DNA of 32,000 nucleotides from Desulfosporosinus sp. (GTDB lineage Bacteria; Bacillota; Desulfitobacteriia; Desulfitobacteriales; Desulfitobacteriaceae): NCBI GenBank assembly GCA_003512645.1, contig DOPS01000280.1, positions 7,734 through 39,733 of the forward strand, given 5' to 3'. The position numbers and the translations under genes are program-made. The notes under the pieces were generated by a model that ran no database searches, was not told the origin of the DNA, and worked only from the letters and a program-made list of their open reading frames with translations. Position 1 is the first letter of the stretch. Every line of letters starts with the position of its first letter. Of this stretch, positions 228-20,522 are shown piece by piece.

Positions 228-322
228 AAGTGGGGATTCTCCTTTCAAAGGATTACTAGGTATCACATACTTCTAACGCTACTTTCAGCTTGTCAAAATG
301 TGTAATGCGCCAATCAAAGAAG

Positions 323-336: not shown

Positions 337-359
337 ACCCTAGAGCAACTGACGGCGCA

Positions 360-3591: not shown

Positions 3592-4962
3592 TCATAAATA
3601 GTACTTTACTGTCAGTTTTGTCGACTTCCCTTTGGGCGGCGCAAAAATAATATCATACTCATAGTTAAGTTTCTTAGTCATTGCATCGCAAACCGTTGGA
3701 GTCGCATTTACAAGCCCCAACTCCTTTTGTAAATCGCCCGCTCGTAAAATATAAGTGCTTTCCCCTGCTGCTTTTTTTTGCTGCAAAAGATTGGATATAT
3801 AGTTCCTTACTTCTGACACTGATAGATTCGTCGTTGAGTGCTTCACCATTTTGGGCAAAACTGAAGTAGCTTTTTTCTTATTCATCGTTAAATGCTTCGT
3901 ATGCGGCATCTGCCCAAATCTAATACTATCCTTAATAAATCCAAACTCCTCAACTGACAACGGCTCCGCATCGAGTCCCTGGGTTAACCACAAACCACTC
4001 CGGCTTATTCTATCTACAGGGCTAGATTTGCCGAGCCAGTTATTATCCGGATAAAAATCATCTGAACAATTCAGAAGTGAAATCAATGCTTCTTCAATCC
4101 GCAGTCTAGCTTCATTATTATTAATGGGAAAGCACACAAAGGATATATTATTATGCAAGTAATCACTAACGGCGGTTTCGATTTCCGCCTCTTTTACTTT
4201 GTCGATGGTGGCTGTGTTCTTTTTGTTGGACATATCCAGTGTCCAAAGATCGAGATATGGATCATTATTCTTACTGAGCAAAGCTTTGCCAATATTTTTC
4301 CTAAAAATGCTTCCGTCTTTATTTTGACTGATAAAATGGTCTTTTAATCTTGCCTTTAAGCGACCCTCCGCGGTGTGAGTCCCCACTCTTACAATCCTAT
4401 CGAGTTCCCCCTGTTTTTGACCTTTCTCGAACATTATGTAGATTCCATCTTCAAAGGGAATCTTAGCAATCATTTGATAATCCATTCTGGGCATCCTATT
4501 AAATAACAGATGAACCGCTTTGCACAGATTTGTTTCACGCTCATAGGCTATTAAACGTTGAAGTGCAGATTGCCTTTCCCCTTGCCGTTTGCCTTCTAAA
4601 GGCAGGTAAATGTTTATGATACTGGGTAGTAGATATTTGCAATAATTATTGCCTGCCAGAATAATAAACTCATCCTTTTCAAGGGATGCTATGTCTTTTA
4701 GCTGTGCTAAAACGTTCTTGCTCCAGTCTTTCTTTTCATCCTCAGATTTATCTAAGAGCGTATCATTGTATGGCGCTAAGACCTGATCTTTCGATACAAG
4801 TCCATATTTTGCAGAAAGTACGTAAATATCGTCTGCAACAATTTCCGCATATGCATAGGCAAGTCGAAACGTCGGGCTTTTGGAATATAGCTCAACAGCA
4901 GGGCAATCGTAGTCTTCTTTTAGACTTGTACATGATATTAACGCTATTCTTGACAATATCAC
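3592..4962 (-). CDS. DUF6884-like N-terminal domain fused to a GIY-YIG nuclease domain, with a C-terminal restriction-associated small domain
   Basis: 456-aa ORF from a GTG at 4962; a TTG at 4956 has better SD spacing. N-terminus: IALISCTSLK..PAVELY..IYVLSAKYGLV..APYNDTL, DUF6884-like from memory. Middle: GIYIMFEKG..RIVRVGTHT..RLKARLKDHF..SIFRKNIGKALL, the GIY-YIG pattern. C-terminus: ILRAGDLQKELGLVNATPTVCDAM, a motif I associate with restriction-related proteins. Confidence 0.6.
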   Translation of the reverse strand: MILSRIALISCTSLKEDYDCPAVELYSKSPTFRLAYAYAEIVADDIYVLSAKYGLVSKDQVLAPYNDTLLDKSEDEKKDWSKNVLAQLKDIASLEKDEFIILAGNNYCKYLLPSIINIYLPLEGKRQGERQSALQRLIAYERETNLCKAVHLLFNRMPRMDYQMIAKIPFEDGIYIMFEKGQKQGELDRIVRVGTHTAEGRLKARLKDHFISQNKDGSIFRKNIGKALLSKNNDPYLDLWTLDMSNKKNTATIDKVKEAEIETAVSDYLHNNISFVCFPINNNEARLRIEEALISLLNCSDDFYPDNNWLGKSSPVDRISRSGLWLTQGLDAEPLSVEEFGFIKDSIRFGQMPHTKHLTMNKKKATSVLPKMVKHSTTNLSVSEVRNYISNLLQQKKAAGESTYILRAGDLQKELGLVNATPTVCDAMTKKLNYEYDIIFAPPKGKSTKLTVKYYL

Positions 4963-5034
4963 ACCTTCTTCTGTCTGTTCTACTCTTTCCCAATACGTTA
5001 AAGATTACGTTCTTGTGTTTTGATAATAGAAGCT

Positions 5035-6234
5035 TTAAGAAGCATTGGTCACCCATTGATCGACTAAGTAATCCAAAAGAAACCGAAGTCTATCCGTATT
5101 ATAACTACCGTCTGTCAAATTGGACCCTCTGAAGGCTCGCACTAGTGCGTCTTTACCTTCGAGTTCACCTTGATACCTATCTAATTCACGATTGTATGAT
5201 GTCCAACGCAAATAACTTATAGCTGAACTAATTTTGCTCATGTCCAGAAAGCATTCGATTGCAACGGCTGAGCCATTAATGTCTTCAACAGACTCTCCAT
5301 TCGGGCCTATCGTTCTGAAGCTTGAAAAATATTCATGATCGGGCAACTTGCATATATGCAAATTCTTTGGCCTGGATAAATCTCGACATTTTTCAAATTT
5401 CTCAATTCCCGCTGCATCATTATCAAATATCACAAGAATATTGTTTTGTATCTTTATTCTTGATAGTCCTTGGCAAAACCGGAATAGGTTGCCTGTTCCC
5501 GTAAATGGATAATTCTCTTCCATATCCACAAAGTAGAAAAAGTCCGAGATATCAGGATAAAGCGCATTTATTGAACGCTTAATAATAAAGGAGTCAGAAG
5601 AACCTTCTGTAACGACTAATATCTTTGACGTATCAGATAGCGGGATGAACACCTCGTCAAAGCTAACCCATCCTCCTTCCACAATATCAGCGTAACGCCA
5701 CTGAACAAGGAAATCTGCATTTTCGTCTTTCTCAGCAAGTAACCTTAACGTAATATATGGATCCAAGTTTTCAAAAAAAGTGCCTAAATCCTTATCAATA
5801 GTAATACCTTCTGGTAAGTATTGGGATAATTCAGGATCAGCAAAAATATAACGACTAACAAACTCACCCAAATCACAATCATAACAACAATTAGGGTCAA
5901 GTACTATTTTTTGAAGGTCTATTGAACTAATAGCTGAAAGAAATTGTTCAAAAGAAATTGTAACCTCTGAATAATAGCTAGGCATCATTTGAAGATGCTC
6001 TACATATCTCCTTTTTAAAGACTGAAAGGAATACCCCAACAGATCCAACCGTTTCTTTAGAGAGCCTAACTTTCGTGAGAATCCTTCTTTCATTTCAACA
6101 ATATCATCAGCATAATAATAAGGAATTTGCATGACGTCAAATCGTTGAAACAAACACGAATGATCTGTAAAGGAATTATTCTTTCCCCAATCTATCTCAA
6201 ATTTATCGATCCCCAAGGTGATCATTGAACCCAT
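5035..6234 (-). CDS. Stand-alone Toprim-domain protein (OLD/AriB/DUF4435-like) with a HEPN/Toprim-associated N-terminal domain
   Basis: The ORF track gives 5035-6270 from a GTG. The ATG at 6234 lies 9 nt after GGGGG and is the better start. Toprim glutamate: ILVVTEGSSDSFIIKR. DxD: LVIFDNDAAGIEKF. The N-terminus ITLGIDKFEIDWGKNN..LFQ resembles the HEPN_Toprim_N family as I recall it. No ATPase partner gene is adjacent. Confidence 0.55.
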   Translation of the reverse strand: MGSMITLGIDKFEIDWGKNNSFTDHSCLFQRFDVMQIPYYYADDIVEMKEGFSRKLGSLKKRLDLLGYSFQSLKRRYVEHLQMMPSYYSEVTISFEQFLSAISSIDLQKIVLDPNCCYDCDLGEFVSRYIFADPELSQYLPEGITIDKDLGTFFENLDPYITLRLLAEKDENADFLVQWRYADIVEGGWVSFDEVFIPLSDTSKILVVTEGSSDSFIIKRSINALYPDISDFFYFVDMEENYPFTGTGNLFRFCQGLSRIKIQNNILVIFDNDAAGIEKFEKCRDLSRPKNLHICKLPDHEYFSSFRTIGPNGESVEDINGSAVAIECFLDMSKISSAISYLRWTSYNRELDRYQGELEGKDALVRAFRGSNLTDGSYNTDRLRFLLDYLVDQWVTNAS

Positions 6235-6637
6235 AAGCATTATCCCCCATTTTATAAATTCCCAGAACACAGTGCTAACCTTCTTAATTTTATGCGCAGT
6301 GTCACACGTCGCATAATAGACATAACTACTTTTTAATATTTAGGCATCAGGCCTCGTTACCAATGAGATCGTTCTGATTAGCGTTCTATATTAGTTATTC
6401 CTCTTTATCCAGTCCTCATCTCCGTTGTTTTAGTAAAACATAAGATACACACGTTATAGGAGTCCATAGACTCCTGGGCCTCATGTTTCAGTTACTCATC
6501 TTACTCCAATGAAAATGTAAGCCCTTAAAACCGCAGCTGTCTACGATGGCCTCTGGGGCATTTCAAATACCCCCATATAGTATTTCTAAGTTACTAAAAT
6601 TCTCGAACGCGTTAACCTCTTTCATATTAAAAAAGTG

Positions 6638-7423
6638 TCAGTCAAAAACAAAAAAATGCTCTTTCCAAGGCGAAATCTGAGTTAAACGAATTCCCCTAGC
6701 CCTTAATAGTCCAATATGTTCTGATGAAGGGACAATGAAGAATGCCCTCAATGTACCTCGCTTGTAAAGCAGCGCGAAAATGTTATCAACACCGAGTTTT
6801 TCCTTCAACTGATCTAACCTTTCTTTCATCTGAACTTCGGCTGGTCCACTTCGGCATAAATGATGATAGATAACCAAACTTTGTTCGCGCTTTACGAAGG
6901 GAACCAATTCTTCAAAGAATGTATATTTTGGCCCGGTCTTTTGATGAGATTTAACAGACTTTACCTCTAACCCATTATCAGGATCAACAAAAATCACGTC
7001 GCACCCCAACGTCGCCTCAAGCGCTTTGCTACTCCATCGGTTTCTGTAACTGATCCGTTCGTTTCGAGCAGCAGGACTATTGTTAGACATGCCCTCATAA
7101 CTAAGGGGCGTCTCATAGAAAACAGTCTTTGTTGGTAGCACATTGAACTTTTGAATTATCGAAACATCTCTTTTACCTGCCTTAATGATCTCAGATAGCG
7201 AATCATAAAGAGCTGGATCACCACTTCTGAAACGTGCTAGATTAGACGTTGTCTGCTCTAAATAGCGAATGTGTTTTCCGTCATCGTTGTGATTTTCATC
7301 TGGTACACGATACCAAACGACTCCCAATGATAAATCCAATTCGGTGCTATTTCCCATGCACAATGTTTTTAGTAGATGGTATTTACCAAAATCTCCAATA
7401 TCACCGACATATCTGTTTTGCAT
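6638..7423 (-). CDS. Uncharacterised 261-aa protein, possibly an RlmJ(DUF519)-like fold with a degenerate motif IV (DPDN)
   Basis: Strong SD GAAGGAGT lies 6 nt before the ATG. N-terminal GDIGDFGKYHLLK resembles RlmJ HAGNxADVLKH. VIFVDPDNGLE sits where RlmJ has lIDPPYE. SLVIYHH and RGTLRAFFIVPS parallel later RlmJ strands. The comparison is from memory only. Confidence 0.35.
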   Translation of the reverse strand: MQNRYVGDIGDFGKYHLLKTLCMGNSTELDLSLGVVWYRVPDENHNDDGKHIRYLEQTTSNLARFRSGDPALYDSLSEIIKAGKRDVSIIQKFNVLPTKTVFYETPLSYEGMSNNSPAARNERISYRNRWSSKALEATLGCDVIFVDPDNGLEVKSVKSHQKTGPKYTFFEELVPFVKREQSLVIYHHLCRSGPAEVQMKERLDQLKEKLGVDNIFALLYKRGTLRAFFIVPSSEHIGLLRARGIRLTQISPWKEHFFVFD

Positions 7424-7481
7424 CCTACTACTCCTTCTTCTCTTCTGTACTTAACTTCACTCTTTCTACACGAATTTCTGA

Positions 7482-8219
7482 TTACTTAAGTAAATGAAAA
7501 AGGTCTCTTTTAAGAATTTCTAATACCTTTCGCCTAAATGGTTCAAAAGAATCTCCTTTACTTCCGTAGTATAGGAAGTGACGACAAGCCATAATTACTC
7601 CCGCCTTTCCATTAGAATATTTGAATTGTATCAACGGAGCTTGCAGCTCCATTCCCACTATTGACTGTTCAACATTTATCGTATTGGGAGCGATCAATCC
7701 TCGACTAATAAAAATATCAACTGACTGATCCACCGTTTTCTTGCCATGTAGAATTATCAAGCTTGGCTTAAATTCCGTGACCAAACTATAAAATATATCC
7801 TTACCTTTCTCTATCACAAACTTAGGTTCCTTTTTAAGGGCCTTTAGATTGGCAGTCGGGTAAGGAATAGCATCCGTTTCAAGAATCGATGCGTCTGTAT
7901 AGTTAGAGAGCCAAGAAAAAAATGAATTCATACCGATTCGGGTACGAGATACTTCATCCTTATCCTGGCTTAATCTACTCGCTTTGTAAAAATCCATAAA
8001 CTCTTCGTAGTTTAGAAGTAAGTCGACGTACTTATCTATTTCCATGTCCATAGGGAATATTGGAGTCGCTGGGTTAATCCCCACAAAGAATATGTCTACC
8101 TTAGATAACTCACCCTTGCAGATAAAAGGTCGATAATAGGCTTTGCCAAGTTCTGGTGCCAGACACATTTTCTTAAGAGAATCATGTGAAACCACAGTTA
8201 CCCCTCCCATCTTTTCCAT
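7482..8219 (-). CDS. Uracil-DNA-glycosylase-superfamily-like protein (MUG/TDG-like motif 1)
   Basis: 245-aa ORF. The GTG at 8195 follows GGGAGGGG by 5 nt and is a likelier start than the ATG at 8219. VDIFFVGINPAT compares with E. coli MUG VVFCGINPGL. FKPSLIILHGKKTVDQ compares with MUG PQALAILGKQAYEQ. The second motif diverges (VIMACRHFLYYGS against VLPNPSGLS). Confidence 0.45.
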   Translation of the reverse strand: MEKMGGVTVVSHDSLKKMCLAPELGKAYYRPFICKGELSKVDIFFVGINPATPIFPMDMEIDKYVDLLLNYEEFMDFYKASRLSQDKDEVSRTRIGMNSFFSWLSNYTDASILETDAIPYPTANLKALKKEPKFVIEKGKDIFYSLVTEFKPSLIILHGKKTVDQSVDIFISRGLIAPNTINVEQSIVGMELQAPLIQFKYSNGKAGVIMACRHFLYYGSKGDSFEPFRRKVLEILKRDLFHLLK

Positions 8220-8376
8220 ATTACATTTGAGATAAAAGAGATTGTTTCGCTAATGCCCACTATTTTTGTCATTCCACTCTATCTCGTATCTATTAAACAT
8301 CTCTACTAAACTAAGGAATTCACGTGCCGAGCTGACTGTTTAAATAGTCAAGCCCAGGCTTCTTGTGCCAAAAAAA

Positions 8377-8775
8377 TCACTTTAAGCCTGATAACTCCCG
8401 TAGTCTATATAAAACATTTAAGAAAATCTTCTCCTTTATCACCTGTCCCCAAAACCCATCACAAAACCTTTCCCCACGAACAGAATGTGTGAGAATTGCC
8501 CGCAGGAGTTGAATATCGGCTTCTGCAATATAAATGTTTATTTTGCCAGTGTCGATCTGATTTTTTTCCAGATAATCGAAGTAGTTATTAATTAGCAAAT
8601 CACTATCATAGACGTCCTTGATAAAGCTATGTAGTTTTTCATCGTAAATTGGGTAATCCATTTCGAGCACACCATCGTTGGTTTCAGATGGCCTGTGCGA
8701 CATATACAAATCAAGACTCTCATCCTCGAAATAGCTTATGTATTCCAATAATTTTTGCCAGTTCTCAATTGCCAT
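8377..8775 (-). CDS. Small uncharacterised protein (about 132 aa), possibly DUF6508-like
   Basis: The ORF track starts at 8805. The ATG at 8775 has SD AAGGTGGTGG about 6 nt upstream and lies 1 nt after the TGA of the upstream 76-aa ORF. The C-terminal motif VRGERFCDGFWGQ was recognised only vaguely. Confidence 0.5.
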   Translation of the reverse strand: MAIENWQKLLEYISYFEDESLDLYMSHRPSETNDGVLEMDYPIYDEKLHSFIKDVYDSDLLINNYFDYLEKNQIDTGKINIYIAEADIQLLRAILTHSVRGERFCDGFWGQVIKEKIFLNVLYRLRELSGLK

Positions 8776-8776
8776 T

Positions 8777-9007
8777 TCAATCCACCACCTTAGATTTAAG
8801 TACAATCACCTTACGTTGACAAATTTTTGAACATGCAAGCATACAGTTGCCATTGATCATTTTATTGTCTTTTCGATGTGATACAATTAGGACGCATAAA
8901 GTATGAATATTTTGACTTCTAACCATACACCCATAATGTTCAATCCCCATTAGTTTAGCTGCAAGGTCCCGTAACTTCACCACGCCTTTATGCCATTTAT
9001 TTGGCAA
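8777..9007 (-). CDS. Possible 76-aa Cys/His-rich leader gene of the operon
   Basis: The TTG start at 9007 is preceded by GGAAGGGG. Its stop TGA (8777-8779) is 1 nt from the next ATG, which suggests translational coupling. I recognise no family, and it could be a spurious ORF. Confidence 0.3.
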   Translation of the reverse strand: MPNKWHKGVVKLRDLAAKLMGIEHYGCMVRSQNIHTLCVLIVSHRKDNKMINGNCMLACSKICQRKVIVLKSKVVD

Positions 9008-9110
9008 GCGCCCCTTCCTTGTGAAGGGATATCTTGGTTATCAAAAATTAAGTAATCCAAAATTAGAAGGATTTCTAGATTTACTACATAGCTGAAAGGA
9101 AAATGAGTGA

Positions 9111-11117
9111 ATGAGCGCAAGCCTTTTCGATCCTTTAGAACAAGATACTGAAATAAACCTTTTTAGCGAACCTTCGCGATCCGGTAATCGAATTGATGTA
9201 GTACAGATGGAGTTTGTCGAAGCAAAAAGTGTGCAGTGGAAGGATTTATTCAAAGGTTTTGATAAAATGTATGCCATCACCTATTCCTCTGGGATGAAGT
9301 TTATCTGTGATTTATTGGAGACATTCCAATATGCCGAAGTTATCTTTGGGTTTGAGGATGTAATGACCTATAGTTTACAGGAAATCATGGCTCACCAATT
9401 GAAAACAATCGAACGTTTGAGATTAACATCGAGTAAAACTAAGATTGATTTGGTTGCCAAAATAGATAACGGTTCTTTGAAAATGTTTGTAGCTCGAAAG
9501 AAATTATCCCACGAAAAGATTTATCTGCTCGAATCTACTGATGGGAAAAAGCGTGTCATTACCGGCTCTGCCAATATGTCCTATTCCGCTTTTTCTGGAA
9601 AGCAAAGGGAAAACATTAGCTATATCGATGGAGATAAGGCCTTTGACTGGTATAAAAATAGTTTTAATGAATTGAAGGAAATGAGTTCTGATAATATCTC
9701 AATTCCTTCACTAACAGTTGCAGATGATTTGGAGAAGGTTGACGAGATTCCGATTATGAGAACAATCCAATTGAAAAAGGCCTTGGTCATCGAACCCGAC
9801 ACAGAGTATAAAGACGATGTCAAATTCGTTCTTGATGTAAAAAACTTAGCCAATAAATTCACTCCATTTATGCCTAAACCCGATAAAAAAGGAAAGCAAA
9901 TCTTGTCGCCTGAGATTGTCGTGCAAACTAGGCGTAGACTGATCGGCGCTGCTGTGCAGGAAAAGGAGTTACGGAGCCAACATCCTCAACTGTTCATAGA
10001 TATTCCACTCATGCAGGTTACTCTTAATGAAACTAAATTAGATTTAAGCCCGACGACAAAGGAAATCCGAAATGATGTGGATTTGTTTCTTGAGTACATG
10101 GCGGGATATCAAAAATTTCATGGTGATACCGAAGGGATGCAATCTAAATACTATGCTTTCGCGAATTGGTTTTTCACAACGCCATTTATGGCCATTATGC
10201 GGGATATGGCAGTGAAATATAACCAGAACCTCCTGCCCTACCCTGTTTTTGGTTTAGTGTATGGTCAAAGTAAAGCTGGGAAGACAACTTTTTTAGAAAC
10301 ACTATTAAAAATGATGATTGGACAAAAGACCAAAATCTCAGCTCCTGATTTTACACGATCAACGATTGATGGGTTAAAAAGAACAGTTCAGGGTGCTCCG
10401 ATCATTGTAGATGACCTCACACAGGCACGATTCTCACAACACGCAATTGAGACCATAAAAAACGATGATTTTGGAGTGGTCGATAATATAACTACCTATC
10501 CAGCCGTGGTAATCAGCGCCAACGAAGATGTAAAAGCTGTTGCTGCCGAGGTTGTCCGGAGAACAGTCATTTGTCACGTTCAAGCCGGACTTAAAAATAC
10601 CGAGCTCATGAGAACAAGTACTGTGAGGCGTGTTCAAAGAAATATCGGAACAGCCTTTTACCGAGAGTATTTAAGGAGAATGATTGCGAAAATTCCCGAG
10701 TTGTTAGATGTCCTAAAGAATGATGAAGATCAAGAAGCTCCAGATATTTTGGAAGTATCCTCAAAAATCTTAGATGAAATTATCTCGGAACACTCCTCTG
10801 AGGTTCCAAACTATGTACGCATACTGACCCTCGATGATTATTTCTCCGAAAAGGTCACTGGTTCCCAGGCGATTAAGAAAATCAAAACCGCATGGCAAAT
10901 CAATCGTAAGGCCTTTGATATTAGCAAAAAACATAATCAGCTTCGATTCAACGCTGGCCAAACGTGGGAGGCCGACCGAATATTAAAAGAACTTCCTGAG
11001 GATTTGGAAGCTCATAAATCTGGAGAATGGATTGTTATGGATTTAAGTAAAGCTTCGGAGTTTTTTGGGATTACCTTCAGTAAATTTGGGGGGTTCCTAG
11101 CCATGTTTAAAGGTTAA
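9111..11117 (+). CDS. Fusion of a single-HKD phospholipase-D-family nuclease domain with an SF3/VirE-like P-loop NTPase
   Basis: 668-aa ORF and the only long plus-strand gene. HKD motif: LSHEKIYLLESTDGKKRVITGSANMS (H134). Walker A: GQSKAGKT (about aa 385-392). Walker B: APIIVDDLT. SF3-like motif C: AVVISANED. Confidence 0.7.
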   Translation: MSASLFDPLEQDTEINLFSEPSRSGNRIDVVQMEFVEAKSVQWKDLFKGFDKMYAITYSSGMKFICDLLETFQYAEVIFGFEDVMTYSLQEIMAHQLKTIERLRLTSSKTKIDLVAKIDNGSLKMFVARKKLSHEKIYLLESTDGKKRVITGSANMSYSAFSGKQRENISYIDGDKAFDWYKNSFNELKEMSSDNISIPSLTVADDLEKVDEIPIMRTIQLKKALVIEPDTEYKDDVKFVLDVKNLANKFTPFMPKPDKKGKQILSPEIVVQTRRRLIGAAVQEKELRSQHPQLFIDIPLMQVTLNETKLDLSPTTKEIRNDVDLFLEYMAGYQKFHGDTEGMQSKYYAFANWFFTTPFMAIMRDMAVKYNQNLLPYPVFGLVYGQSKAGKTTFLETLLKMMIGQKTKISAPDFTRSTIDGLKRTVQGAPIIVDDLTQARFSQHAIETIKNDDFGVVDNITTYPAVVISANEDVKAVAAEVVRRTVICHVQAGLKNTELMRTSTVRRVQRNIGTAFYREYLRRMIAKIPELLDVLKNDEDQEAPDILEVSSKILDEIISEHSSEVPNYVRILTLDDYFSEKVTGSQAIKKIKTAWQINRKAFDISKKHNQLRFNAGQTWEADRILKELPEDLEAHKSGEWIVMDLSKASEFFGITFSKFGGFLAMFKG

Positions 11118-11189
11118 TGAAAATAATATAAAAGCCTTGTAATGGAACATCTGTTCTGGCAAACTTAAGCTGTAACCGAAAGGCTACAC

Positions 11190-11227
11190 AAAAGCACTCG
11201 AATGCGGGCAGGCAAGCGGGTGCTTTT
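11190..11227. terminator. Bidirectional intrinsic terminator between convergent genes
   Basis: AAAAGCACTCG (11190-11200) pairs with CGGGTGCTTTT (11217-11227), including one G:U pair. T-runs follow on both strands. A smaller hairpin, tgtaacc-gaaa-ggctaca, lies at 11171-11188. Confidence 0.5.
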
Positions 11228-11261
11228 ATATTTGAATATTGTTACCCAATTAACTTGCTTA

Positions 11262-11285
11262 ACAATATGGCTCACAGCTTTGAAT
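11262..11285 (+). repeat. Direct repeat copy 2
   Basis: Lies about 32 nt downstream of the EVE-HNH stop. On the minus strand it reads ..YSKL and a stop, mimicking the ParB-like C-terminus. Confidence 0.6.
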
Positions 11286-11316
11286 ATTTGATACAGGTAT
11301 CTATATAAATGAATTA

Positions 11317-12348
11317 TTATCCCGAATGTACTTCTCTATGACAATTCGGGCAAACAGCTATTGCATTATCAACGGTATCTTCACCGCCATCTGTTAATCT
11401 TATAATGTGATGAACTTCAAGATATGGAGTACCGTCAGATCTCCTAATAAACGGTGCTGGTTTTTTACACTTTTCACAAACCCCGTTTGCTCTGACAAGA
11501 ACCTCTGCAATTACATCAGGATTACGTTTAAACACTATTGATATTGTCACATGCGTTTCAGGGATAAGTACCGTTCTACTTTCTAATCGTTTCTTTCTCT
11601 CCTCACTTCCATCCGCCAATGACTTTTGGACTTGCCTATTAAGTTCATCATGATTATCCAGCTGAAAATTTAATTCATTCAGCATCTTTACCATGCTGTC
11701 ATAATGTTTTCTTTCAAGTTCCAGTAACGTCCCCCTGTGATTCTTAATAATATCGCAATTACTCAGCTTTTCCATTATCCTTAAAGTATCCAGATCCAGA
11801 AATATGTTAAAATCTCTGGTTTTCTGAAAATCAACGAAAATTTCATTTTTCTCTTCGTACTTATCCACTACTTGACATATTGCAGTAACTGCTTTAGTCT
11901 CACCTGTTTCATACGCAAGTACAAGATCTCCTATCTGTATGTTCTTAAAGCAGCCTTCATTCTTTCGTTTGCCTCTGTCAGAGTTTAAGTTGGAATAACG
12001 TTGTCTACTGCCAACCTTAACAATTGAAAAGGCCCAATTATAAACCTTAGAATCAATATTTAGCCAGAAATACTTTGGTTGACGCCTGTTTTTCGGAAGA
12101 ATCCGATACTCACCTTTACCAATACGTTCAAAATATACTTTATATGTTGGGCTATGTGTATTTTCCGTTGCATTTGAAAGTATGACCCTCATATGATTTT
12201 CACTTGCTGGAATTCCGTTTCTTTTACAAAAGTCCTTAACCTTCTGAAAAGTAATTGGCTCAATGATCTCTCCTTCAATTACAGCTTTTACTAGTTCATA
12301 TCCTAAGCCTTCACCGTATTTTACCACTTTATCACCCAGCTTTCTCAC
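11317..12348 (-). CDS. EVE/PUA-like domain plus C-terminal HNH endonuclease (predicted modification-dependent, type IV-like restriction enzyme)
   Basis: 343-aa ORF. HNH: CEKCKKPAPF..LEVHHIIRLTDGGEDTVDNAIAVCPNCHREVH. Middle: YFWLNIDSKVYNWAF..IQIGDLVLAYETGETKAVTAICQV, EVE/PUA-like. N-terminus: YFERIGKGEYRIL, winged-helix-like. The GTG start at 12348 has no obvious SD, so the start is uncertain. Confidence 0.6.
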   Translation of the reverse strand: MRKLGDKVVKYGEGLGYELVKAVIEGEIIEPITFQKVKDFCKRNGIPASENHMRVILSNATENTHSPTYKVYFERIGKGEYRILPKNRRQPKYFWLNIDSKVYNWAFSIVKVGSRQRYSNLNSDRGKRKNEGCFKNIQIGDLVLAYETGETKAVTAICQVVDKYEEKNEIFVDFQKTRDFNIFLDLDTLRIMEKLSNCDIIKNHRGTLLELERKHYDSMVKMLNELNFQLDNHDELNRQVQKSLADGSEERKKRLESRTVLIPETHVTISIVFKRNPDVIAEVLVRANGVCEKCKKPAPFIRRSDGTPYLEVHHIIRLTDGGEDTVDNAIAVCPNCHREVHSG

Positions 12349-12986: not shown

Positions 12987-13561
12987 TCACGAAACAAATC
13001 CGACCGGCCGGGAGGGATTGTGCCGGGAATTCAAATATATATCACCTGTTGTATTTCTTGAAGTCCAGTATCTTCCGGTTAGTTGATCGACATCGTCTAA
13101 CTCGATTCTGCATGTCCCATATTGCATGGGATTTTCATAACCATGTCTGCCTTTGGGGTTCGTTATGTATGTGTAGTACATCACATAGGCTCCATTTTCC
13201 TCGATTATCTCACTAGATATCGATGCACTTGTTATTTCATCTGTAATTATTTTAATACGAGTAGAAAATAAACTTTGCTTAACGGAATATTGGTAGCCTT
13301 TTCTCCGTCTACACCATTATAGCGGTATTCTATCTTTCCGATGTAATTTTGATTTAATCTCGGAATTTTCTCCAAAGGATTCCAACGCCATCCCCATTTA
13401 ACATAAATGATTGATAGTAACGTTGTACTAGTTATAGCGTATCCAGCATAACTGGTGTAATTAGCAAAAACGATTGGTTCTTTTATGTAACAACATAGGG
13501 AAAACACTAGGATAGCGAATACTATGATAGATTTTATATATCCTTTCTGTTTATCGCTCAT
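12987..13561 (-). pseudogene. CBASS effector, 2TM + beta-strand-rich (Cap15/S-2TMbeta-like), interrupted by a 1-nt frameshift
   Basis: The first ORF (13247-13561) has two TM helices (IIVFAILVFSLCCYI and YAITSTTLLSIIYV) followed by KWGWRWNPL..YIGKIEYRYNGVDGEK. The reading continues in the adjacent frame as GYQYSVKQSLFSTRIKIITDE..YVMYYTYITNPKG..GTCRIELDDVDQLTGRYWTSRNTTGDIYL, with a stop at 12987. The frames switch at the coding-strand run GGAGAAAAGGC (T4 at 13299-13302). One extra A restores a protein of about 191 aa. Confidence 0.6.
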
Positions 13562-13563: not shown

Positions 13564-14559
13564 TTAGGCTTCCTGAATATCATATTGGTAAAAGTCACTC
13601 AATGCTATTATAAAGGTTTTATAATTCTCTCTGTCTGAGGTAGTCGGAAACAGCGTTTTGATACCATTTGCTTCCTTGCATGTGCCAAAATTGTCAAAGT
13701 CACCTCTAAGATGGATGATCAGTTCATCAAATGTGTATCTATAGACAGAAGGATATTTTGCGTAAACAGCATTTGGAATGTTCCAAAGCAAGGATTCCAA
13801 CCCGAAAGATGACACATTTTTAGGACTTGAATATTCGTAATCAAGCATTAATTGTTTCATTTTCTTCATAATACGGACGTGCTTTTTAAAGCAATAGTTT
13901 GTAGCATTATTTTTAGCTCTACCATTTTTAATATGTTGTTCAGGGTAATTGATAATATTTCCCCCACTGTCTGGCCTTATTTCTATACCACCCACATAAT
14001 TATTGGCATCAAAGTGATAATCTTCACGATAATCTCTAAATCGATAAGCTGGTACAACATCAGCATCCACCCGATAACTATTACCATGAACCTTAATAGA
14101 TTTATCCTTGCGTTCAACACCCTCACCGTTGAATTTCCTCTTTAAGGCAGACTCAACTTCGTCTTTTAGTTTCTGCGCAGTGAACGTGCCATCAGTAAAA
14201 TTATAACTCTTTTTTGTTACTTCAATTCTGTATTCCGGAATAAACGTTGACTCTAGAATAACAGCAACATCCACGTCACTCTGAGTACGGATATTCGTAT
14301 TATTTGCATATGAGCCCTGTACCAGCAAAACAATTTTCTTGCCCATGTCACCATGCAGGTCTAATGAGAATGCCCATGTGTCAGTTTCATAGGAACGAAT
14401 TTCTTTGTTGTTATCGGTATATCCCACCAATTTCATTGCGTCTCTAATCATACGAATTGCGTTTTTACAACGTTCTTCCTCAGTTGCACTAAGCGGCGTT
14501 GCGTATGTTATTAATTGTGATTCTTTAAAATTCAACGCTATTCCTCCTCTAACAATCAT
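13564..14559 (-). CDS. CD-NTase (cGAS/DncV-like nucleotidyltransferase, SMODS) of a type I CBASS
   Basis: Active-site pattern: LLVQGSYANNTNIRTQSDVDVAV plus a third Asp in YRVDADVVPAY. C-terminal FGLESLLWNIPN. The stop lies 2 nt from the effector ATG. The likely true start is the TTG at 14535 (MNFKESQL), 7 nt after AGAGGAGGA. Confidence 0.75.
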   Translation of the reverse strand: MIVRGGIALNFKESQLITYATPLSATEEERCKNAIRMIRDAMKLVGYTDNNKEIRSYETDTWAFSLDLHGDMGKKIVLLVQGSYANNTNIRTQSDVDVAVILESTFIPEYRIEVTKKSYNFTDGTFTAQKLKDEVESALKRKFNGEGVERKDKSIKVHGNSYRVDADVVPAYRFRDYREDYHFDANNYVGGIEIRPDSGGNIINYPEQHIKNGRAKNNATNYCFKKHVRIMKKMKQLMLDYEYSSPKNVSSFGLESLLWNIPNAVYAKYPSVYRYTFDELIIHLRGDFDNFGTCKEANGIKTLFPTTSDRENYKTFIIALSDFYQYDIQEA

Positions 14560-14732: not shown

Positions 14733-17700
14733 TCAAATAATATCAATTAATCGCACCTCATAAGCGATCCTCTCACCCGCCACCCTATAAACATAAACAT
14801 GCTCCCTAATCAAACCATAATCCTGCTCCATTAAATCTTGGCTAAGCTCCCCTTCATTCGACGTCAAGATAATATATCGACTAACACCTTCAGTATCTTC
14901 GCTGATAAAATCAACCAAGCCATATGCATCCATCCTTTTCAGATTAAGCCTGCCTTGGTGGGTTTCATAATCTTTAACGATGCTTTCAAAATCATTGGGA
15001 ATTAAACGGCTATAGGGTGAATCTTCATAGGGTTGCACCTTAAATTGTGCTACCTTTTTCACAGAACGTAATTGTATGCTACGCTCCCTCTCGATTTCCT
15101 CTAATCGATCATGGCGACGCTCTTCTAGATCCTCAATCTGACTGATGGTCTGGTTGATCAGAGCACTATTTTTATGTGCGACATCTTCAGTCTGATATCT
15201 TTGCAGGCGCTCATAAAGGGTCGTCATTTGGGTATCAAATGAACGTCTTAAAAATTGACTTTTGCGATTCAGTAACTCTTCACGGCCTAGACGCAATGTG
15301 ATTAACTGTAGACGTGCTTGTTTAATGACTTCTCCCTTAAAGGTTTCGTCTTCAGATATGCCGATCTCCGTCCCCTTGATCGTGTCACTAAACAGCCAAT
15401 AGGGGGACAAGCGAATATAGGCACCATTAGCCCGCTTGGCCAGCAACAGCAAGCTGCGTTCTAATTCCCGTCCTTGCCCATTCACAAAACTAATTTCATT
15501 CAACTCAACAGTCATAGGTTCGTTCACTTTACACCTTATACTGCAAGTCGGCAGTGATATTCGTTGGACATCTTGCTCGGCATAAGCCAAGGCTAACTTA
15601 TAGAGTGGATGATCATTGGCTAAAAGTAATAAATCTTCAGTCTCTTTATCTTCCTTGACCGTAAACCGGTACGTTCCTTCATCACTGAAATGGATCTTAT
15701 GCTTTTTGCTAAAGTCTCGCACAGATTTAGGAATACGATCTATACGAATGATAGACTTATCATTTGATAGATTCAATTTCAAACGTGTTGACTGTAATTG
15801 TTCTAAAGCAAACTGTCCGTAGACACGCGCAGGTATGCTTTCCAGGGATAATTCATTATAGGAACGCCTCACTCCTGGGAGATCAAAGCTTTGATCATCG
15901 AGCCGCTCTTCTCGAGCTTGTTCCAGGAGCCGGCGATGTTCTTCTGATAAACGTTTTTCCATCTGAGCGATCAGATCATCAAGATTTTCTCTTCCAGAAA
16001 TAGCTTTTTCCATGAGGCTTGCCAGATCAATCTCCTCTTCTTCCAGAACTTCTCCAATGAAATCGTAGACAAGCTCCTGGCCTAGATCAACGCGCATTTG
16101 CTCAAGCTTCTCTAATAGACGTTTCATGACTTCCCCTTCGCGAGTGTTCACTGCCACAAGGTTAAAGACAAAGACTTCGTTCCTTTGCCCAATTCTATGA
16201 ATACGCCCCATACGCTGCTCGAGTCTGTTCGGATTCCATGGAACATCGTAATTAATCAACTGATTACAAAATTGAAGGTTGATTGATTCTCCACCAGCAT
16301 CGGTTGCCAACATAATCTGGACGTCACCCCGGAACTTTTCAATTTCTTCCCGACGTCGATCCATTGAGAAATCCCCTACAATTTTTGCCACCGATGGTAC
16401 CCGATCAAGTAAGCGCCGTTCTAAATAATTCAGGGTATCTTTGGCCTCCGAAAAAAGAAGAATTTTTTCTCCTTTGGCTAAAAGGCCCTCTGGTCCAAAC
16501 AAGGTAGATTCTAACTCTTGATATTTTCGCTCCACATCACTCAAGCGAACTCCATTGGCCTTTCTAATTAAATCCGTCAATTCATTGATTTCTAGCTGCA
16601 ATTCATAGAGGTCAATCGCATCCGTTTCGCCCTCCGCAACGCCCTCTAGTTCATCTTGTTCTTCAACTGTGGCCTCTTCATACTCCTCAATGGAGAAAAC
16701 ACGGACTTGTTTCAGCTCGTTTTTCAGGACATCTTCAAGCCGTTCTTTACGCCGTACCAACGATAAATAAATCGCCTCAATAGACGAGCTCAGCCTTCGT
16801 TGCAAGAGCATCATAGCAAATGCCGTACTGTGATTATTATTCTTTTTGGCCCGGTTAAAATGCTCACTGACATAGGACGTGACATCGTTATATAACTCTA
16901 ATTCATCAATGGACAAATTAAAGGCTAAGGTTTGAGTGGTCCGCTTAGGAAATAAGGGCGTACCATCAAAGGTGACCATAGACTCTTTCAAGCGACGAAT
17001 GATAAAGGGATTGGTTTTCTCATACAAAGAGTCGCTGGTATTGAGGTTCGAAAACAGATCATGGTCTATGAGGTTCATTAAGTGGCGAAAGTTCTCTTTA
17101 TCTCCCTTATGCGGGGTAGCCGTTAATAACAAACAGTGTTCTGCATTTCGCAAGAGCACTTCCCCAAGTTGATACATCTTAGTTCTTTGAATTTTTCGCT
17201 GCTTTACCCCATGAGTGTAGGCCGCCATTTTATGCGCTTCATCCACAATGATCAGATCGAATTTAGAACGGATCAAATAGTTTTTGACATCCTCACGCAT
17301 TGCCCAGTAAAGTGAGGCCAGGCAATTGTCGTGTTGATCAAATGGATTGAGATTACCAGATTCACGTAGCGTAGTGCGAGAAATGATCTTAAACTCTTCA
17401 CCAAACTTCTCACTTAACTCTTCTTGCCATTGAGGGAGCACCAGGGGGGGTACAAGAATCAGGATTCTCTCGACACTTTGTCTAGCCAATAATTCTCGAA
17501 TAAGCATTCCCGCCATAATTGTTTTTCCTGCACCTGGGTCATCCGCCAGCAAAAAACGCACCTGTGGGGTTTGCAACATTCGGCTGTAAACAGCTTCAAT
17601 TTGATGGGGTAAAGGTATAATCTGTTGGTTTCCTCGCATCCTTGACTTAGAATATCGTTCATCTAGCTTGAGAACATGGTACCGTAAGTAATGACTGATT

Positions 17701-17909
17701 TGATCGAGGGTAGCAACAGGATTAAGGTTTTCTTGTAATAATTCTAACGACTCAAGCTGTTCTAACTCCAGATAGCTTTCATAATACTCTCTCGTCTGGC
17801 GACCAATAGCCTCTACTAAGAAGAGGATCTTATCGATGGGTTCACATTTCTTTATTTCTACTGTTTCCGCCCAATAGGGACCTTGGATGATATCACCAAC
17901 TTTAATCAA
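14733..17909 (-). CDS. brxHII: SNF2-family helicase occupying the BrxL position of the BREX locus (BrxHII-like), with a C-terminal extension of about 450 aa
   Basis: 1058 aa. TTG start 8 nt after GGGGG. Motifs: LADDPGAGKT (I), IIVDEAHKM (II), LLLTATPHKG (III), QRMGRIHRIGQ (VI). It starts 90 nt downstream of pglZ. Confidence 0.7.
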   Translation of the reverse strand: MIKVGDIIQGPYWAETVEIKKCEPIDKILFLVEAIGRQTREYYESYLELEQLESLELLQENLNPVATLDQISHYLRYHVLKLDERYSKSRMRGNQQIIPLPHQIEAVYSRMLQTPQVRFLLADDPGAGKTIMAGMLIRELLARQSVERILILVPPLVLPQWQEELSEKFGEEFKIISRTTLRESGNLNPFDQHDNCLASLYWAMREDVKNYLIRSKFDLIIVDEAHKMAAYTHGVKQRKIQRTKMYQLGEVLLRNAEHCLLLTATPHKGDKENFRHLMNLIDHDLFSNLNTSDSLYEKTNPFIIRRLKESMVTFDGTPLFPKRTTQTLAFNLSIDELELYNDVTSYVSEHFNRAKKNNNHSTAFAMMLLQRRLSSSIEAIYLSLVRRKERLEDVLKNELKQVRVFSIEEYEEATVEEQDELEGVAEGETDAIDLYELQLEINELTDLIRKANGVRLSDVERKYQELESTLFGPEGLLAKGEKILLFSEAKDTLNYLERRLLDRVPSVAKIVGDFSMDRRREEIEKFRGDVQIMLATDAGGESINLQFCNQLINYDVPWNPNRLEQRMGRIHRIGQRNEVFVFNLVAVNTREGEVMKRLLEKLEQMRVDLGQELVYDFIGEVLEEEEIDLASLMEKAISGRENLDDLIAQMEKRLSEEHRRLLEQAREERLDDQSFDLPGVRRSYNELSLESIPARVYGQFALEQLQSTRLKLNLSNDKSIIRIDRIPKSVRDFSKKHKIHFSDEGTYRFTVKEDKETEDLLLLANDHPLYKLALAYAEQDVQRISLPTCSIRCKVNEPMTVELNEISFVNGQGRELERSLLLLAKRANGAYIRLSPYWLFSDTIKGTEIGISEDETFKGEVIKQARLQLITLRLGREELLNRKSQFLRRSFDTQMTTLYERLQRYQTEDVAHKNSALINQTISQIEDLEERRHDRLEEIERERSIQLRSVKKVAQFKVQPYEDSPYSRLIPNDFESIVKDYETHQGRLNLKRMDAYGLVDFISEDTEGVSRYIILTSNEGELSQDLMEQDYGLIREHVYVYRVAGERIAYEVRLIDII

Positions 17910-17999: not shown

Positions 18000-20522
18000 T
18001 TAATAAAGCGCCTGGTACATTCTGAGTGTGAACACTTCATCACGATAAAGCTCGACCTTACCCGCTCGAATCGTCTCAATCCTTAACGTGCATGTTTCTC
18101 CTAGCGCATAATGACCTTCTGCCAAGGTGAATAAAACTGAGACATTCCGCTCCATCGCCTCGCCCGTTAAGTCAAACGTATAGATCACTTCATTAGAAGT
18201 TCTCTCGCCATTCTTATAAAAAGCCATCTTAACTTGTCGTAGCAATACATCGTTGGATATCCTTTTCTCTTGGTAGAAAGTTACCTGTTGTCGATAGTTC
18301 GTAATGATCTTATCTGGAGTTGCCACATTGATGTCGACCAGCTCGGCATCGGCAGTGCGGCGATAATCAATCAATGGAATAACCATTTCTTGGGGCATGG
18401 CTCCACCGTGAATGAATTGCAACCCCCCTGCTCCGATAAAACGGTTTAACCCTTTAGTGATCACTGCCTCACAATTAAGGATGACTGCTTCTTCTGGTAG
18501 GCGAATAGCCCCTTCCGGAACAGTTAAGCCCTTTCCTAAAGCGAAGCGTCGATTCTTATCATAGATTTCACCGGTGACCGCCTTGACCTTAGCGTCCGCT
18601 TCCACTTTATTATATTGAAATAAAAAGCCGTGGTCAGCGGTAATAAAGATCCGCTTAGCCTGAAGACGAGAGAGCTTGTCCACCGCATCCTTTAAGGCCG
18701 CAATCGTTCGTTCGACCGCTTCATACGTCTCACGCTCGGTTTTTGCTGTATCCCCCGTCGCATCAATTACATCATGATATAAATAAACCAAACGTTTGCG
18801 CTTGAACTTCTCATCAGCCTCACTAGGCGACCAATCCATGAAATCCCCTAGACGATAACAAACGGCTTCAGGACAATACGCTTGTAAAATAGCTTCTCGG
18901 TTGATTATCCCACGGGTTGATTTTTCATCGACATAGACTGTTCCACCTTCATCAATACGCATTTCACGGTGGGGCAACAGACACGCCATTCCCAGTTGGG
19001 TATAACTCGGCAAACTAACCTTCATGGGTTGAATTGATGCCTCTCCATTGATGCGTTGATTGAGCTGATCTGTTAGATCACGCCCCACCTCATAGCGAAA
19101 GGCATCGGAAATGATCACGAAAATCTTTGTCTGTTCCTTGTTTATAACTGGGCGAATCTTATCAGTAAAGAACTGTTCCTGCTTCAACATCTTACCCTTG
19201 GACTCGACCGTTCCTTCACATAACCAAGCATTAGTTTCTTCTGCCATACGCACAAGATACACATTTTCATACCAATTGGTCAGTTGTTCGATTAAAGGGT
19301 ATAGCAACTCCTTTTGTTCTATATGTAAATAATTTTGCATTAAGTGACGATAAATTTGGTCAATTTTATACCATTCATCTGCGTAAAGACTTAAGAAACT
19401 ATCCCATGACGAAGAATTAGAAGCAAACTTCTTGACCAGCATTTTTAGTTCAGTAAGTTTAATCACATGACTCAACACATCATAGTAACCGGCTAGTTTC
19501 TCCTTTTTCCCCCAATGGGTCTGTCTGTGAGCATTAATTCGCTCGCTCCAGGCACGAAGATCAGCCGTTTGATGCCTAATCTGATCGATCATTTGCTCGA
19601 TTAGTAGCCCCTCTGTCGAAGGGAATGTCGAAGTACGATCATAGGCCTCTAGTGGTTTTGCAATGAGCTGCTCGGGTATCCTGTACTTAGATTCAAACTC
19701 TTTAATATATCCCTCTAATTTCTCTACCTTCGGCTTTTCTTCCCGAAACCAGTCCTCAATAAAGAGAGCACAGGTATTTGGCAAGGTCGAATCTAAGCTC
19801 TGTATCAAAGGGGGATCAATAAGTGCAGCACTAGCAAAATGTTGATAAATCGTAATTTCCATTAAGTTTAATAAAGGATTACCGACCTCATCGATCGCGA
19901 TTCCAAAGTGGGGTAGAATTAACTTCCACATGCGATCGAGGGAGAAGAACTTAGCCACCTTTTTTAAGCCCTCATTGTTAGTTGAATCTAGTCCTAAGTA
20001 TAAGAGCTGCTGGGTAATATCGGGTATGGTCAGCGAGGGGGAACCGATAAGGACAGCAATCATCGCGCTTTCAACCATCTTCTGATCTGCTTTTGCAGGT
20101 AAAATACGCTTTAACTTCTGCTTGCGCTCTTTACCTTTAAAGAACGCAGCAAAGTCCTCCACCATAGGGCGGATGACATGATCCTCTACCTGCAGTTCCT
20201 CGACGACCATAGCAATCTCGTCCGACTTAAACTCCGCTCCATAAAGCAGTATATCCAGTAAGTAATTCTTATCATCCCTTGGACGAGGAAAGGAGGCATA
20301 GAGAATAAAGGAGGTATGGGGATGTTTAATTTCTATGTCATATTTGAGACGAAAGAAGTTATTTTGTGTTATGCGTCGTACTTCCATTGCTTCTGCCACA
20401 AACTCTAGTTCCAACTCAGCAAAGTCCATCTGTTCACTGGCGTCATACCAGAAAAGAATGGCGCGTGGTTTAGCATCGTTCTCTTGAGTAATTTTCTCGC
20501 GCAGTGACTGTATCAAATCCAT
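18000..20522 (-). CDS. pglZ: BREX PglZ (alkaline-phosphatase-fold protein)
   Basis: 840 aa. Motifs: FVIISDAFRYE and RIFITADHGF. The position directly after pglX is canonical for BREX. Confidence 0.85.
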   Translation of the reverse strand: MDLIQSLREKITQENDAKPRAILFWYDASEQMDFAELELEFVAEAMEVRRITQNNFFRLKYDIEIKHPHTSFILYASFPRPRDDKNYLLDILLYGAEFKSDEIAMVVEELQVEDHVIRPMVEDFAAFFKGKERKQKLKRILPAKADQKMVESAMIAVLIGSPSLTIPDITQQLLYLGLDSTNNEGLKKVAKFFSLDRMWKLILPHFGIAIDEVGNPLLNLMEITIYQHFASAALIDPPLIQSLDSTLPNTCALFIEDWFREEKPKVEKLEGYIKEFESKYRIPEQLIAKPLEAYDRTSTFPSTEGLLIEQMIDQIRHQTADLRAWSERINAHRQTHWGKKEKLAGYYDVLSHVIKLTELKMLVKKFASNSSSWDSFLSLYADEWYKIDQIYRHLMQNYLHIEQKELLYPLIEQLTNWYENVYLVRMAEETNAWLCEGTVESKGKMLKQEQFFTDKIRPVINKEQTKIFVIISDAFRYEVGRDLTDQLNQRINGEASIQPMKVSLPSYTQLGMACLLPHREMRIDEGGTVYVDEKSTRGIINREAILQAYCPEAVCYRLGDFMDWSPSEADEKFKRKRLVYLYHDVIDATGDTAKTERETYEAVERTIAALKDAVDKLSRLQAKRIFITADHGFLFQYNKVEADAKVKAVTGEIYDKNRRFALGKGLTVPEGAIRLPEEAVILNCEAVITKGLNRFIGAGGLQFIHGGAMPQEMVIPLIDYRRTADAELVDINVATPDKIITNYRQQVTFYQEKRISNDVLLRQVKMAFYKNGERTSNEVIYTFDLTGEAMERNVSVLFTLAEGHYALGETCTLRIETIRAGKVELYRDEVFTLRMYQALY

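Follow-up and report, generated by a model that had tools for sequence, protein, structure and literature searches.

A single-gene fusion of a PLD nuclease domain with a Cch/SF3-like AAA+ ATPase module as a candidate defence enzyme

A PLD nuclease and a ring-helicase-like motor in one polypeptide

In a 32,000-nucleotide stretch of the Desulfosporosinus sp. contig DOPS01000280.1 (assembly GCA_003512645.1, forward-strand positions 7,734 to 39,733; hereafter the window), a plus-strand gene at 9111-11117 encodes, from an ATG start, a 668-residue protein in which a phospholipase D (PLD) nuclease domain is fused to an AAA+ ATPase module resembling Cch and the superfamily 3 (SF3) helicases. We regard it as a good candidate for a one-gene defence enzyme, and its product is probably a stand-alone ATP-dependent DNA nuclease that defends against phages or other invading DNA; it is the genomic context that suggests the role in defence. 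The motor is best read as a derivative of a mobile-element replicative helicase. The family to which the protein belongs is catalogued in Pfam (PF27394), yet it is uncharacterised.

Among the 20 open reading frames (ORFs) of at least 100 codons in the window, this gene is the sole credible one on the plus strand, as a preliminary description of the DNA had held; the two other plus-strand ORFs of this size (4686-5132 and 30541-30843) lie inside long genes of the minus strand. The same description had recognised a single HKD motif and a P-loop NTPase in one polypeptide, and the motifs indeed lie at the residues quoted for them (HEK at 134-136, GSAN at 152-155, and the ATPase motifs as in Table 1), with HxK and Walker A each occurring just once in the protein. 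We assessed conservation on an alignment of 87 diverse family members, with identities down to about 24%, which also served as the AlphaFold2 input for the full-length model. The latter has a mean predicted local distance difference test score (pLDDT) of 89.2 and a predicted template modelling score (pTM) of 0.83, while residues 291-668 modelled alone reach 95.6 and 0.93. A Foldseek search of the PDB splits the protein cleanly, with the N-terminus matching PLD nucleases and the remainder ring helicases. Between these regions lies a helical linker that is the sole poorly conserved segment of the protein: its mean identity to the window protein is 23%, versus 33-41% in the other domains, and pLDDT drops within it at residues 230-236. 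Since the catalytic residues of both centres are invariant or near-invariant in the 87 members, both appear to be under selection across the family.

The nuclease domain

The N-terminal domain is a single-HKD domain of the Nuc/BfiI/NgoFVII type, as initially assigned. It exceeds the curated cut-offs of two Pfam models, namely RE_NgoFVII (31.8 versus 23.8 bits) and PLDc_2 (30.5 versus 27 bits), with both matches spanning residues 120-192; of 72 family members compared with Pfam, 68 match the former and 65 the latter. The preliminary description had made its reading depend on the conservation of the HKD residues, and these are conserved: H134, S153 and E167 are each present in 86 of the 87 aligned members, and K136 and N155 in all of them. 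The 'D' of HKD lacks such conservation, with K, S or E found at position 141. By fold, the domain matches R.NgoAVII (4rct, E = 6.7e-6), BfiI (2c1l), Zucchini (4gel), Nuc (1byr) and SauUSI (7clg), the Foldseek probability being 1.00 for 4rct, 2c1l, 4gel and 1byr at an rmsd of 4.3-5.9 over about 160 columns; the nearest PLD relatives are double-stranded DNA (dsDNA) restriction endonucleases. Because each chain carries one HxK, the domain would in principle constitute half of a PLD active site, two copies of which must pair to cut.

The ATPase module

In the ATPase core, Walker A is separated from Walker B by 43 residues, Walker B from motif C by 36, and the asparagine of motif C from the arginine by 13. 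Such spacing is that known from SF3 helicases. R364 and P378 are invariant in a family alignment. Pfam gives only sub-threshold P-loop matches at residues 383-442 (RNA_helicase and MobB), and across the 72 members the matches are scattered and weak (RNA_helicase in 8, VapE-like in 3, DUF5906 in 3, PPV_E1_C in 1 at E = 1.4e-5 and DUF927 in 1). The Pfam scan of the window protein detected neither a primase domain nor ResIII, DEAD, Helicase_C or DUF3427.

Structural comparisons are more telling. The full-length model finds in the PDB the Cch helicase of the staphylococcal cassette chromosome SCCmec (5dgk, E = 2.8e-6), and further fold matches include the PrimPol of African swine fever virus, E5 of monkeypox virus, poxvirus D5, the SV40 large T antigen, NS1 of parvovirus B19, the NrS-1 protein, and PriRep1 and PriRep5 of staphylococcal pathogenicity islands (SaPI). 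When residues 291-668 are searched alone, Cch is the sole strong match (E = 6e-6), aligning over 408-431 columns, approximately the whole module, with template modelling (TM) scores of 0.34-0.39; SF3 helicases (E about 2e-3) and generic AAA+ rings come after it. While a search of PDB sequences with the single protein gave no match, the family profile places Cch first (E = 3.6e-4, spanning Walker A to Walker B) and also aligns weakly to Cch residues 402-501, in its C-terminal region. Among predicted viral structures, the best matches are phage primase-helicases of the Toprim/DUF927 kind, a 'ring-shaped active helicase', the C-terminal regions of P4-type primases and SF3 helicases.

The preliminary description had likened the NTPase to SF3 helicases or VirE rather than to superfamilies 1 and 2 (SF1 and SF2). 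The SF3-like A/B/C motifs and the ring-helicase folds agree with this, with the nuance that the closest solved relative, Cch, has been classed as MCM-like, a hexameric helicase that loads itself and has a winged helix at its C-terminus for binding dsDNA, and that Cch2, PriRep5 and Rep1, which are related to it, are SF3 (PMC9371898). Hence, a broader label such as 'SF3/MCM-like' or 'Cch/SF3-like AAA+ ring helicase type' is safer for this motor, as the data do not separate the two classes. By analogy with these helicases, the AAA+ module may form a hexameric ring and translocate.

Distribution of the family and relation to named systems

A word-indexed search yielded more than 1,873 homologues, and the top 120 among them are 63-94% identical to the window protein and about 665-670 residues long. 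Exhaustive comparison with 1.84 billion representatives of 50% identity clusters recovered 980 clusters at E<=1e-3, of which 294 have E<=1e-30, and the full-length architecture of about 660 residues, aligned in a single stretch, is kept down to about 26% identity. Recurrence on this scale greatly exceeds chance. All of the best 120 homologues, including P0001 (94% identity), carry the precomputed domain PF27394 ('Aq_aa27') in their C-terminal region, a name that points to an uncharacterised Aquifex ORF; in NCBI the homologues go by 'phospholipase D family protein' or 'restriction endonuclease PLD domain-containing protein'. We found no description of the PLD and ring-helicase architecture in the full-text literature, where 'aq_aa27/PF27394' gave spurious matches only.

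Species-representative genomes encode 166 relatives. Those of 56-70% identity come from Bacillota, Chitinispirillia (related to Fibrobacterota), Spirochaetota, Kiritimatiellota, Lentisphaerota and Verrucomicrobiota, and this spread over phyla points to horizontal transfer. No homologue occurs in the 50,697 phage genomes of INPHARED, and a single one is found among the 2.9 million viral contigs of IMG/VR. As that contig encodes a MobA/VirD2 relaxase, ParA/ParB and a Nudix protein, it is probably a plasmid or an integrative and conjugative element (ICE) rather than a virus, and we accordingly reject a phage origin.

Like the preliminary description, we recognise no named system in this architecture. 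PADLOC v2 gives weak, domain-level matches to PbeA (7e-4), mad8 (1.4e-3) and ZacB (5e-3), while NCBIfam (r20, June 2026) gives nothing meaningful. The match to PbeA, of the Dnd-associated Pbe system, covers residues 87-198 only, and the window has no dnd or pbe genes; because the PbeA models match SauUSI-like neighbours of the family at 3.5e-40, the similarity reflects the shared PLD domain, and these models really describe PLD-SF2 helicases. Membership in the mad8 and ZacB groups is rejected on the same weakness of the matches. With SauUSI-type enzymes the protein has the PLD domain alone in common, and it shows no mREase_IV match. An assignment to the type II restriction-modification (R-M) systems of the NgoFVII/BfiI kind fails for want of a cognate methyltransferase, as none was found adjacent to the gene in the window by Pfam or PADLOC.

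Genomic neighbourhoods of the relatives

We examined 84 loci, 80 of them drawn from the species-representative genomes and 4 obtained by exact protein look-up, along with four plasmid loci and the IMG/VR locus. No partner gene is conserved across the 84: the 744 neighbouring ORFs fall into 604 clusters, the commonest of which occurs in 15 of 82 loci. The flanks are instead rich in restriction and defence genes; the preliminary description had proposed to survey them for defence-island enrichment. Of 100 nearest flanking ORFs of at least 200 residues, 16 encode SauUSI-like type IV enzymes (PLD + SF2 + DUF3427), the most prominent group, 5 encode PDC-S41/Schlafen-like helicases and 3 match mad2; type I R-M, Csm6, ZorD-like and BrxL genes are present in the flanks as well. 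Methyltransferases number two among these 100 (N6_Mtase), both from type I systems, and the 25 Pfam families matched by most flanks include no Rep, primase or integrase family. For instance, McrBC comes after the homologue of L001, that of L003 has PLD-helicases and Mrr on its flanks, and that of L004 stands alone among sugar-metabolism genes.

The distant plasmid copies are likewise solitary and are found among toxin-antitoxin genes and insertion sequence (IS) elements, by a DISARM-like helicase and methylase, or by parAB. Two distant copies (L087 5738-8995, and L089 6762-11941 on the IMG/VR contig) lie directly beside parA/parB on plasmid-like elements, and the plasmids that bear distant copies encode a Rep or DnaB of their own. 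The preliminary description had allowed that homologues might consistently belong to phage or plasmid replication modules; given that there are no phage homologues and no recurring Rep or primase, this is not the case.

In about 25 of 82 loci, SauUSI-like and Nudix genes, the homologue and a gene for a MazG-like pyrophosphatase, sometimes with a Schlafen-like helicase (PDC-S41), form tight co-oriented arrays of shuffled order (e.g. L025 1037-6943, L038 3601-12094 and L054 2416-10564; also L027, L033, L076, L077 and L082). Such arrays may represent a recurrent 'anti-modified-DNA' island, and the presence of type IV, Nudix and MazG-like neighbours hints at phages with modified DNA as the targets.

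An autonomous cassette with its own signals

When the window is compared by blastn with L005, whose copy of the protein is 90% identical, the homology falls into three separate blocks. One of these (window 8710-11232, L005 4777-7295, 86% identity) comprises the gene, about 400 bp upstream of it and about 115 bp downstream, to just beyond a hairpin. With homology to L005 stopping at 8710 and 11232 and no partner in the 84 loci, the earlier proposal of an autonomous cassette gains support, and 8710-11232 appears to be that cassette. A transposon-like nature is rejected, as there are no terminal direct or inverted repeats at 8500-11450.

The preliminary description had further placed the gene opposite an operon at 6638-9007 with which it would share a promoter region of about 100 bp, and both statements need revision. 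A 76-residue minus-strand ORF at 8777-9007 is probably spurious, being broken by indels in L005; since it is not conserved there, the gene is separated by about 305 bp (8806-9110) from its divergent neighbour, the DUF6508 gene. The latter and unk245 (together 7438-8709) constitute an indel relative to L005, which retains a 28-residue remnant of DUF6508, whereas unk261 is kept. Because of this difference, 6638-9007 is not one unit and the PLD-ATPase gene is independent of it. The HEPN/Toprim and EVE-HNH genes are also absent from L005, while the PDC-M57 fusion is kept. A tblastn search of the 84 loci with the window neighbours gave matches only in L005 and L052, the latter encoding an unk261 relative (45% identical) about 10 kb from the homologue; a link of the gene to the supposed divergent operon is thus rejected. 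Neither unk245 nor unk261 has a convincing match in Pfam, PADLOC, NCBIfam or PHROG.

The 8806-9110 spacer is about 85% identical in L005, equal to the coding sequence, and includes long identical blocks such as TTGACAAATT and CATTTTATTGTCTTTTC..TGTGATACAATTAG, which suggests a regulatory region or a structured leader. Within one such block, TGaTACAAT is a possible extended -10 element; its -35 is weak, and a consensus scan detects no strong sigma-70 site in the spacer. The left approximately 96 bp of the upstream region that travels with the gene overlap the start of the DUF6508 gene. At the other end, the larger of two hairpins lies between an A-run and a U-run and folds stably whichever strand is read (-25 kcal/mol each, z = -3.8 and -5.0); it looks like a bidirectional intrinsic terminator, as had been proposed.

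Proposed mechanism and alternatives

We infer the nuclease and ATPase activities of the protein, its oligomeric state, DNA as its substrate, its defence phenotype and its trigger, and propose that it would load on DNA as a ring, as Cch and the SF3 helicases do. ATP hydrolysis would then drive translocation along the DNA or its remodelling, and cleavage would ensue upon the pairing of PLD domains, either inside one ring or across two rings. In this scheme, the nuclease would occupy the place of the primase in the phage and mobile-element relatives, with the collar and the winged-helix-like domain being kept. As no methyltransferase accompanies the gene, self and non-self would not be told apart by classical R-M protection; a type IV-like recognition of modified DNA, or recognition of a structure or replication intermediate, is more likely. 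A bolder version, to which we give somewhat less than even credence, is that the protein typifies a new class of single-polypeptide, methylation-independent, ATP-dependent enzyme for restriction or defence in which a Cch/SF3-like replicative ring helicase of mobile elements has been domesticated as the motor and the pairing of half-site PLD domains gates cleavage, in a hexamer or in two converging or head-to-head rings.

Several observations weigh against the proposed defence nuclease. The full-text literature yielded no experimental work on any family member. No modified-base reader or hypervariable specificity domain is recognisable in the protein, and no SF3 model of Pfam reaches its threshold on it (RNA_helicase scores 16 bits against 21.5). 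The motor resembles the solved helicases only remotely (TM 0.27-0.39, 9-15% identity), and the pre-sensor-1 beta-hairpin is not seen in the model, which has a loop at 451-465 instead. The neighbourhood survey draws mostly on one subfamily (at least 56% identity) and on related Bacillota of guts and anaerobic digesters, its loci are not phylogenetically independent, and two of the five distant contexts inspected are beside parAB on plasmid-like elements.

These last contexts bear on the possibility that the protein serves the replication or maintenance of mobile elements, as a Rep-like initiator whose PLD domain nicks and whose ring helicase unwinds, by analogy with the parvoviral Rep proteins that combine an HUH nuclease with an SF3 helicase. 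The nearest relatives of the motor, namely the self-loading replicative helicases of SCCmec and SaPI and the phage primase-helicases, would be in keeping with such a role, as would the plasmid location of some distant copies and the chemistry of PLD enzymes, which proceeds through a covalent phosphohistidine intermediate. We nevertheless consider it quite improbable: the family is nearly absent from the viral collections as against the 166 relatives in species-representative genomes, the carrier plasmids have their own Rep or DnaB, neither a recurring Rep, primase or integrase family nor terminal repeats accompany the gene, and the neighbours differ right up to its ends, the sites being defence islands or ordinary chromosomal genes. 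The co-oriented arrays in several lineages (L025, L027, L038 and L054) raise a different prospect, namely that the protein is an accessory subunit of a multi-gene system against modified DNA, acting with a SauUSI-like PLD-helicase (e.g. through PLD heterodimers), Nudix proteins and MazG-like pyrophosphatases. The frequency of SauUSI-like genes among the flanking ORFs and the Nudix gene adjoining the IMG/VR copy are in line with it; however, fewer than a third of the loci have any such neighbour, gene order is shuffled, and none of these neighbours is present at the window copy, in L001, at the plasmid copies or in L004, with its solitary copy, all of which makes this reading very unlikely.

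An abortive-infection effector is likewise conceivable, in which the helicase module, instead of translocating, would sense phage replication proteins, serve as a decoy for them or work as an AAA+ switch, while the PLD domain, once activated, would attack DNA or RNA without selectivity. It would account for the resemblance of the module to phage primase-helicases, for the lack of both a specificity domain and a methyltransferase and for the model having no clear DNA-binding beta-hairpin; moreover, the fold matches include Zucchini, and RNA cleavage is known for some PLD nucleases. Yet the conservation of the full ATPase set, including the trans-acting arginine, and of the basic K450 at the putative pore loop, is a better fit to an active ring motor, and the closest PLD relatives are restriction endonucleases that cut dsDNA; we therefore hold this explanation to be unlikely.

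Comparison with known systems and implications

The stand-alone nuclease that we favour has a close parallel in SauUSI, which is likewise a single chain with an N-terminal, dimerising single-HKD PLD domain of the NgoFVII/BfiI type followed by an ATP-driven DNA motor, lacks a cognate methyltransferase, matches by fold and is the type of the commonest neighbours of the family. It differs in having an SF2 motor and a DUF3427/SRA-like domain that reads 5-methylcytosine, whereas the window protein has a Cch/SF3-like AAA+ module and no detected modified-base reader. R.NgoAVII/CglI and BfiI provide the best fold matches of the nuclease domain (4rct, 2c1l), which also passes the threshold of the Pfam model RE_NgoFVII. 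The PDB title of 4rct presents the NgoAVII system as an ATP-dependent restriction enzyme. These enzymes, however, come with a cognate methyltransferase and a B3-like DNA-binding domain, and the ATPase is a separate subunit in NgoAVII and CglI and lacking in BfiI; the window protein is without a B3-like domain, such a subunit or a cognate methyltransferase.

On the side of the motor, SCCmec Cch, SaPI Rep and the phage DUF927 and D5-type primase-helicases (5dgk, 7ola, 7pds) are the closest to residues 291-668 by fold and profile, sharing the order of a collar, a compact A/B/C and arginine-finger ATPase and a C-terminal helical/winged-helix region. In mobile elements and viruses these proteins initiate replication or act as its helicases, usually with a primase as fusion or partner, whereas the window protein has a nuclease in its place, belongs to a family absent from phages and located in defence islands, and resembles them remotely (TM <= 0.39). 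In logic, McrBC, BrxL and the HerA-nuclease systems, all of them ring motors, are similar in joining a hexameric P-loop ring to a nuclease without protection by methylation; they differ in that their ATPases belong to other clades, the nuclease is separate or absent and there is no sequence relationship. In defence enzymes, BfiI-like N-terminal PLD domains are joined in modular fashion to diverse C-terminal modules (END-nuclease preprint, PMC12191111), and the window protein fits this pattern with a new kind of C-terminal module. Thus, ATP-dependent PLD defence nucleases (SauUSI, NgoAVII/CglI) and systems of a ring NTPase with a nuclease (McrBC and others) are already known, and what is new here is the type of motor and the single-chain arrangement.

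If its function is confirmed, the family, whose 980 clusters span many bacterial phyla and include plasmid copies, would add a widespread one-gene enzyme to the defence repertoire. It would further imply that the ring helicases with which mobile elements replicate have been co-opted to power immune nucleases, and would provide PLD restriction enzymes with a third type of motor besides the SF2 motors of SauUSI and of NgoAVII/CglI. The means of discriminating self from non-self are of particular interest, given that there is no methyltransferase or recognisable reader domain. The candidate is easy to test since it is compact, measuring about 2.5 kb with its own predicted promoter and terminator.

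Table 1. Features of the PLD-ATPase gene, its flanks and the neighbouring genes in the window.
Feature	Nucleotides	Residues	Strand	Basis or remark
PLD nuclease and Cch/SF3-like AAA+ ATPase fusion, coding sequence	9111-11117	1-668	+	ORF, Pfam, homologues, model
Disordered tail		1-39	+	secondary structure, model confidence
PLD (NgoFVII/BfiI/Nuc-type) nuclease domain	9228-9686	40-192	+	Pfam, pLDDT, Foldseek
HKD catalytic motif (SHEKIYLLESTDGKKRVITGSAN), running on to conserved Q165/E167	9510-9575	134-155	+	alignment
Variable helical linker	9687-9980	193-290	+	least conserved region of the protein
Helicase N-terminal (collar) region, small beta unit and two long helices	9981-10241	291-377	+	model
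AAA+/SF3-like ATPase core	10242-10610	378-500	+	alignment, profile match to Cch
Walker A (GQSKAGKT)	10263-10286	385-392	+	K391 87/87; G385 and G390 each 86/87
Walker B (IIVDD)	10401-10415	431-435	+	D434 77/87; position 435 D or E in 87/87
Candidate pore-loop lysine, within the ATPase core		450	+	K450 in at least 90%
Motif C/sensor-1 (VVISAN)	10506-10523	466-471	+	N471 87/87
Arginine finger (K483-R484)	10557-10562	483-484	+	R484 87/87
C-terminal helical domain (501-597) and winged-helix-like alpha/beta domain (598-655)	10611-11075	501-655	+	DSSP of models
Upstream non-coding region travelling with the gene, probable promoter and 5' leader	8710-9110		+	blastn block, no conserved ORF
Extended -10-like TGaTACAAT, candidate promoter	8879-8887		+	read from sequence; in block identical in L005
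Two adjacent hairpins between convergent genes	11171-11227		.	fold prediction; smaller 11171-11188, larger 11190-11227
DUF6508 gene	8377-8805		-	divergent from the PLD-ATPase gene
unk245	7482-8219		-	unknown
unk261	6638-7423		-	unknown
HEPN/Toprim protein	5035-6270
PDC-M57A/B fusion	3592-4962		-	456 residues
EVE-HNH type IV-like enzyme	11317-12348
CBASS cyclase, intact	13564-14559		-	2TM effector downstream
SNF2 helicase	14733-17909		-	1058 residues; best as DrmD (1185 bits), also BrxHI/BrxHII
BREX type 1 (BrxA, BrxB, BrxC, PglX, PglZ)	18000-28842		-	PADLOC
SF1 helicase with PLD, Mokosh-II-like	29286-31829		-	847 residues

The surrounding defence island

Judged by its predicted gene content, the window is a dense defence island (Table 1). 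Its bacteriophage exclusion (BREX) type 1 cluster is complete, with the SNF2 helicase coming after it instead of BrxL. In the cyclic-oligonucleotide-based anti-phage signalling system (CBASS), the 2TM effector (12987-13561, minus strand) is split over two frames and hence disrupted, either as a pseudogene or through a sequencing error: 13247-13561 corresponds to positions 1-99 of the 185 of the PADLOC profile, and a second piece, ORF 12987-13184, to positions 128-182 (E = 7e-24). The Mokosh-II-like product, of 847 residues, combines AAA_11/AAA_12 with a C-terminal PLD domain; the MkoA and MkoC models match it only over their C-terminal parts, and it is much shorter than these profiles. The PDC-M57 fusion unites two PADLOC candidates, PDC-M57A (DUF6884) and PDC-M57B, that PADLOC models as individual proteins. 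Downstream of it, a minus-strand gene at 804-2783 encodes a DUF2779 protein of 659 residues that has no PADLOC match.

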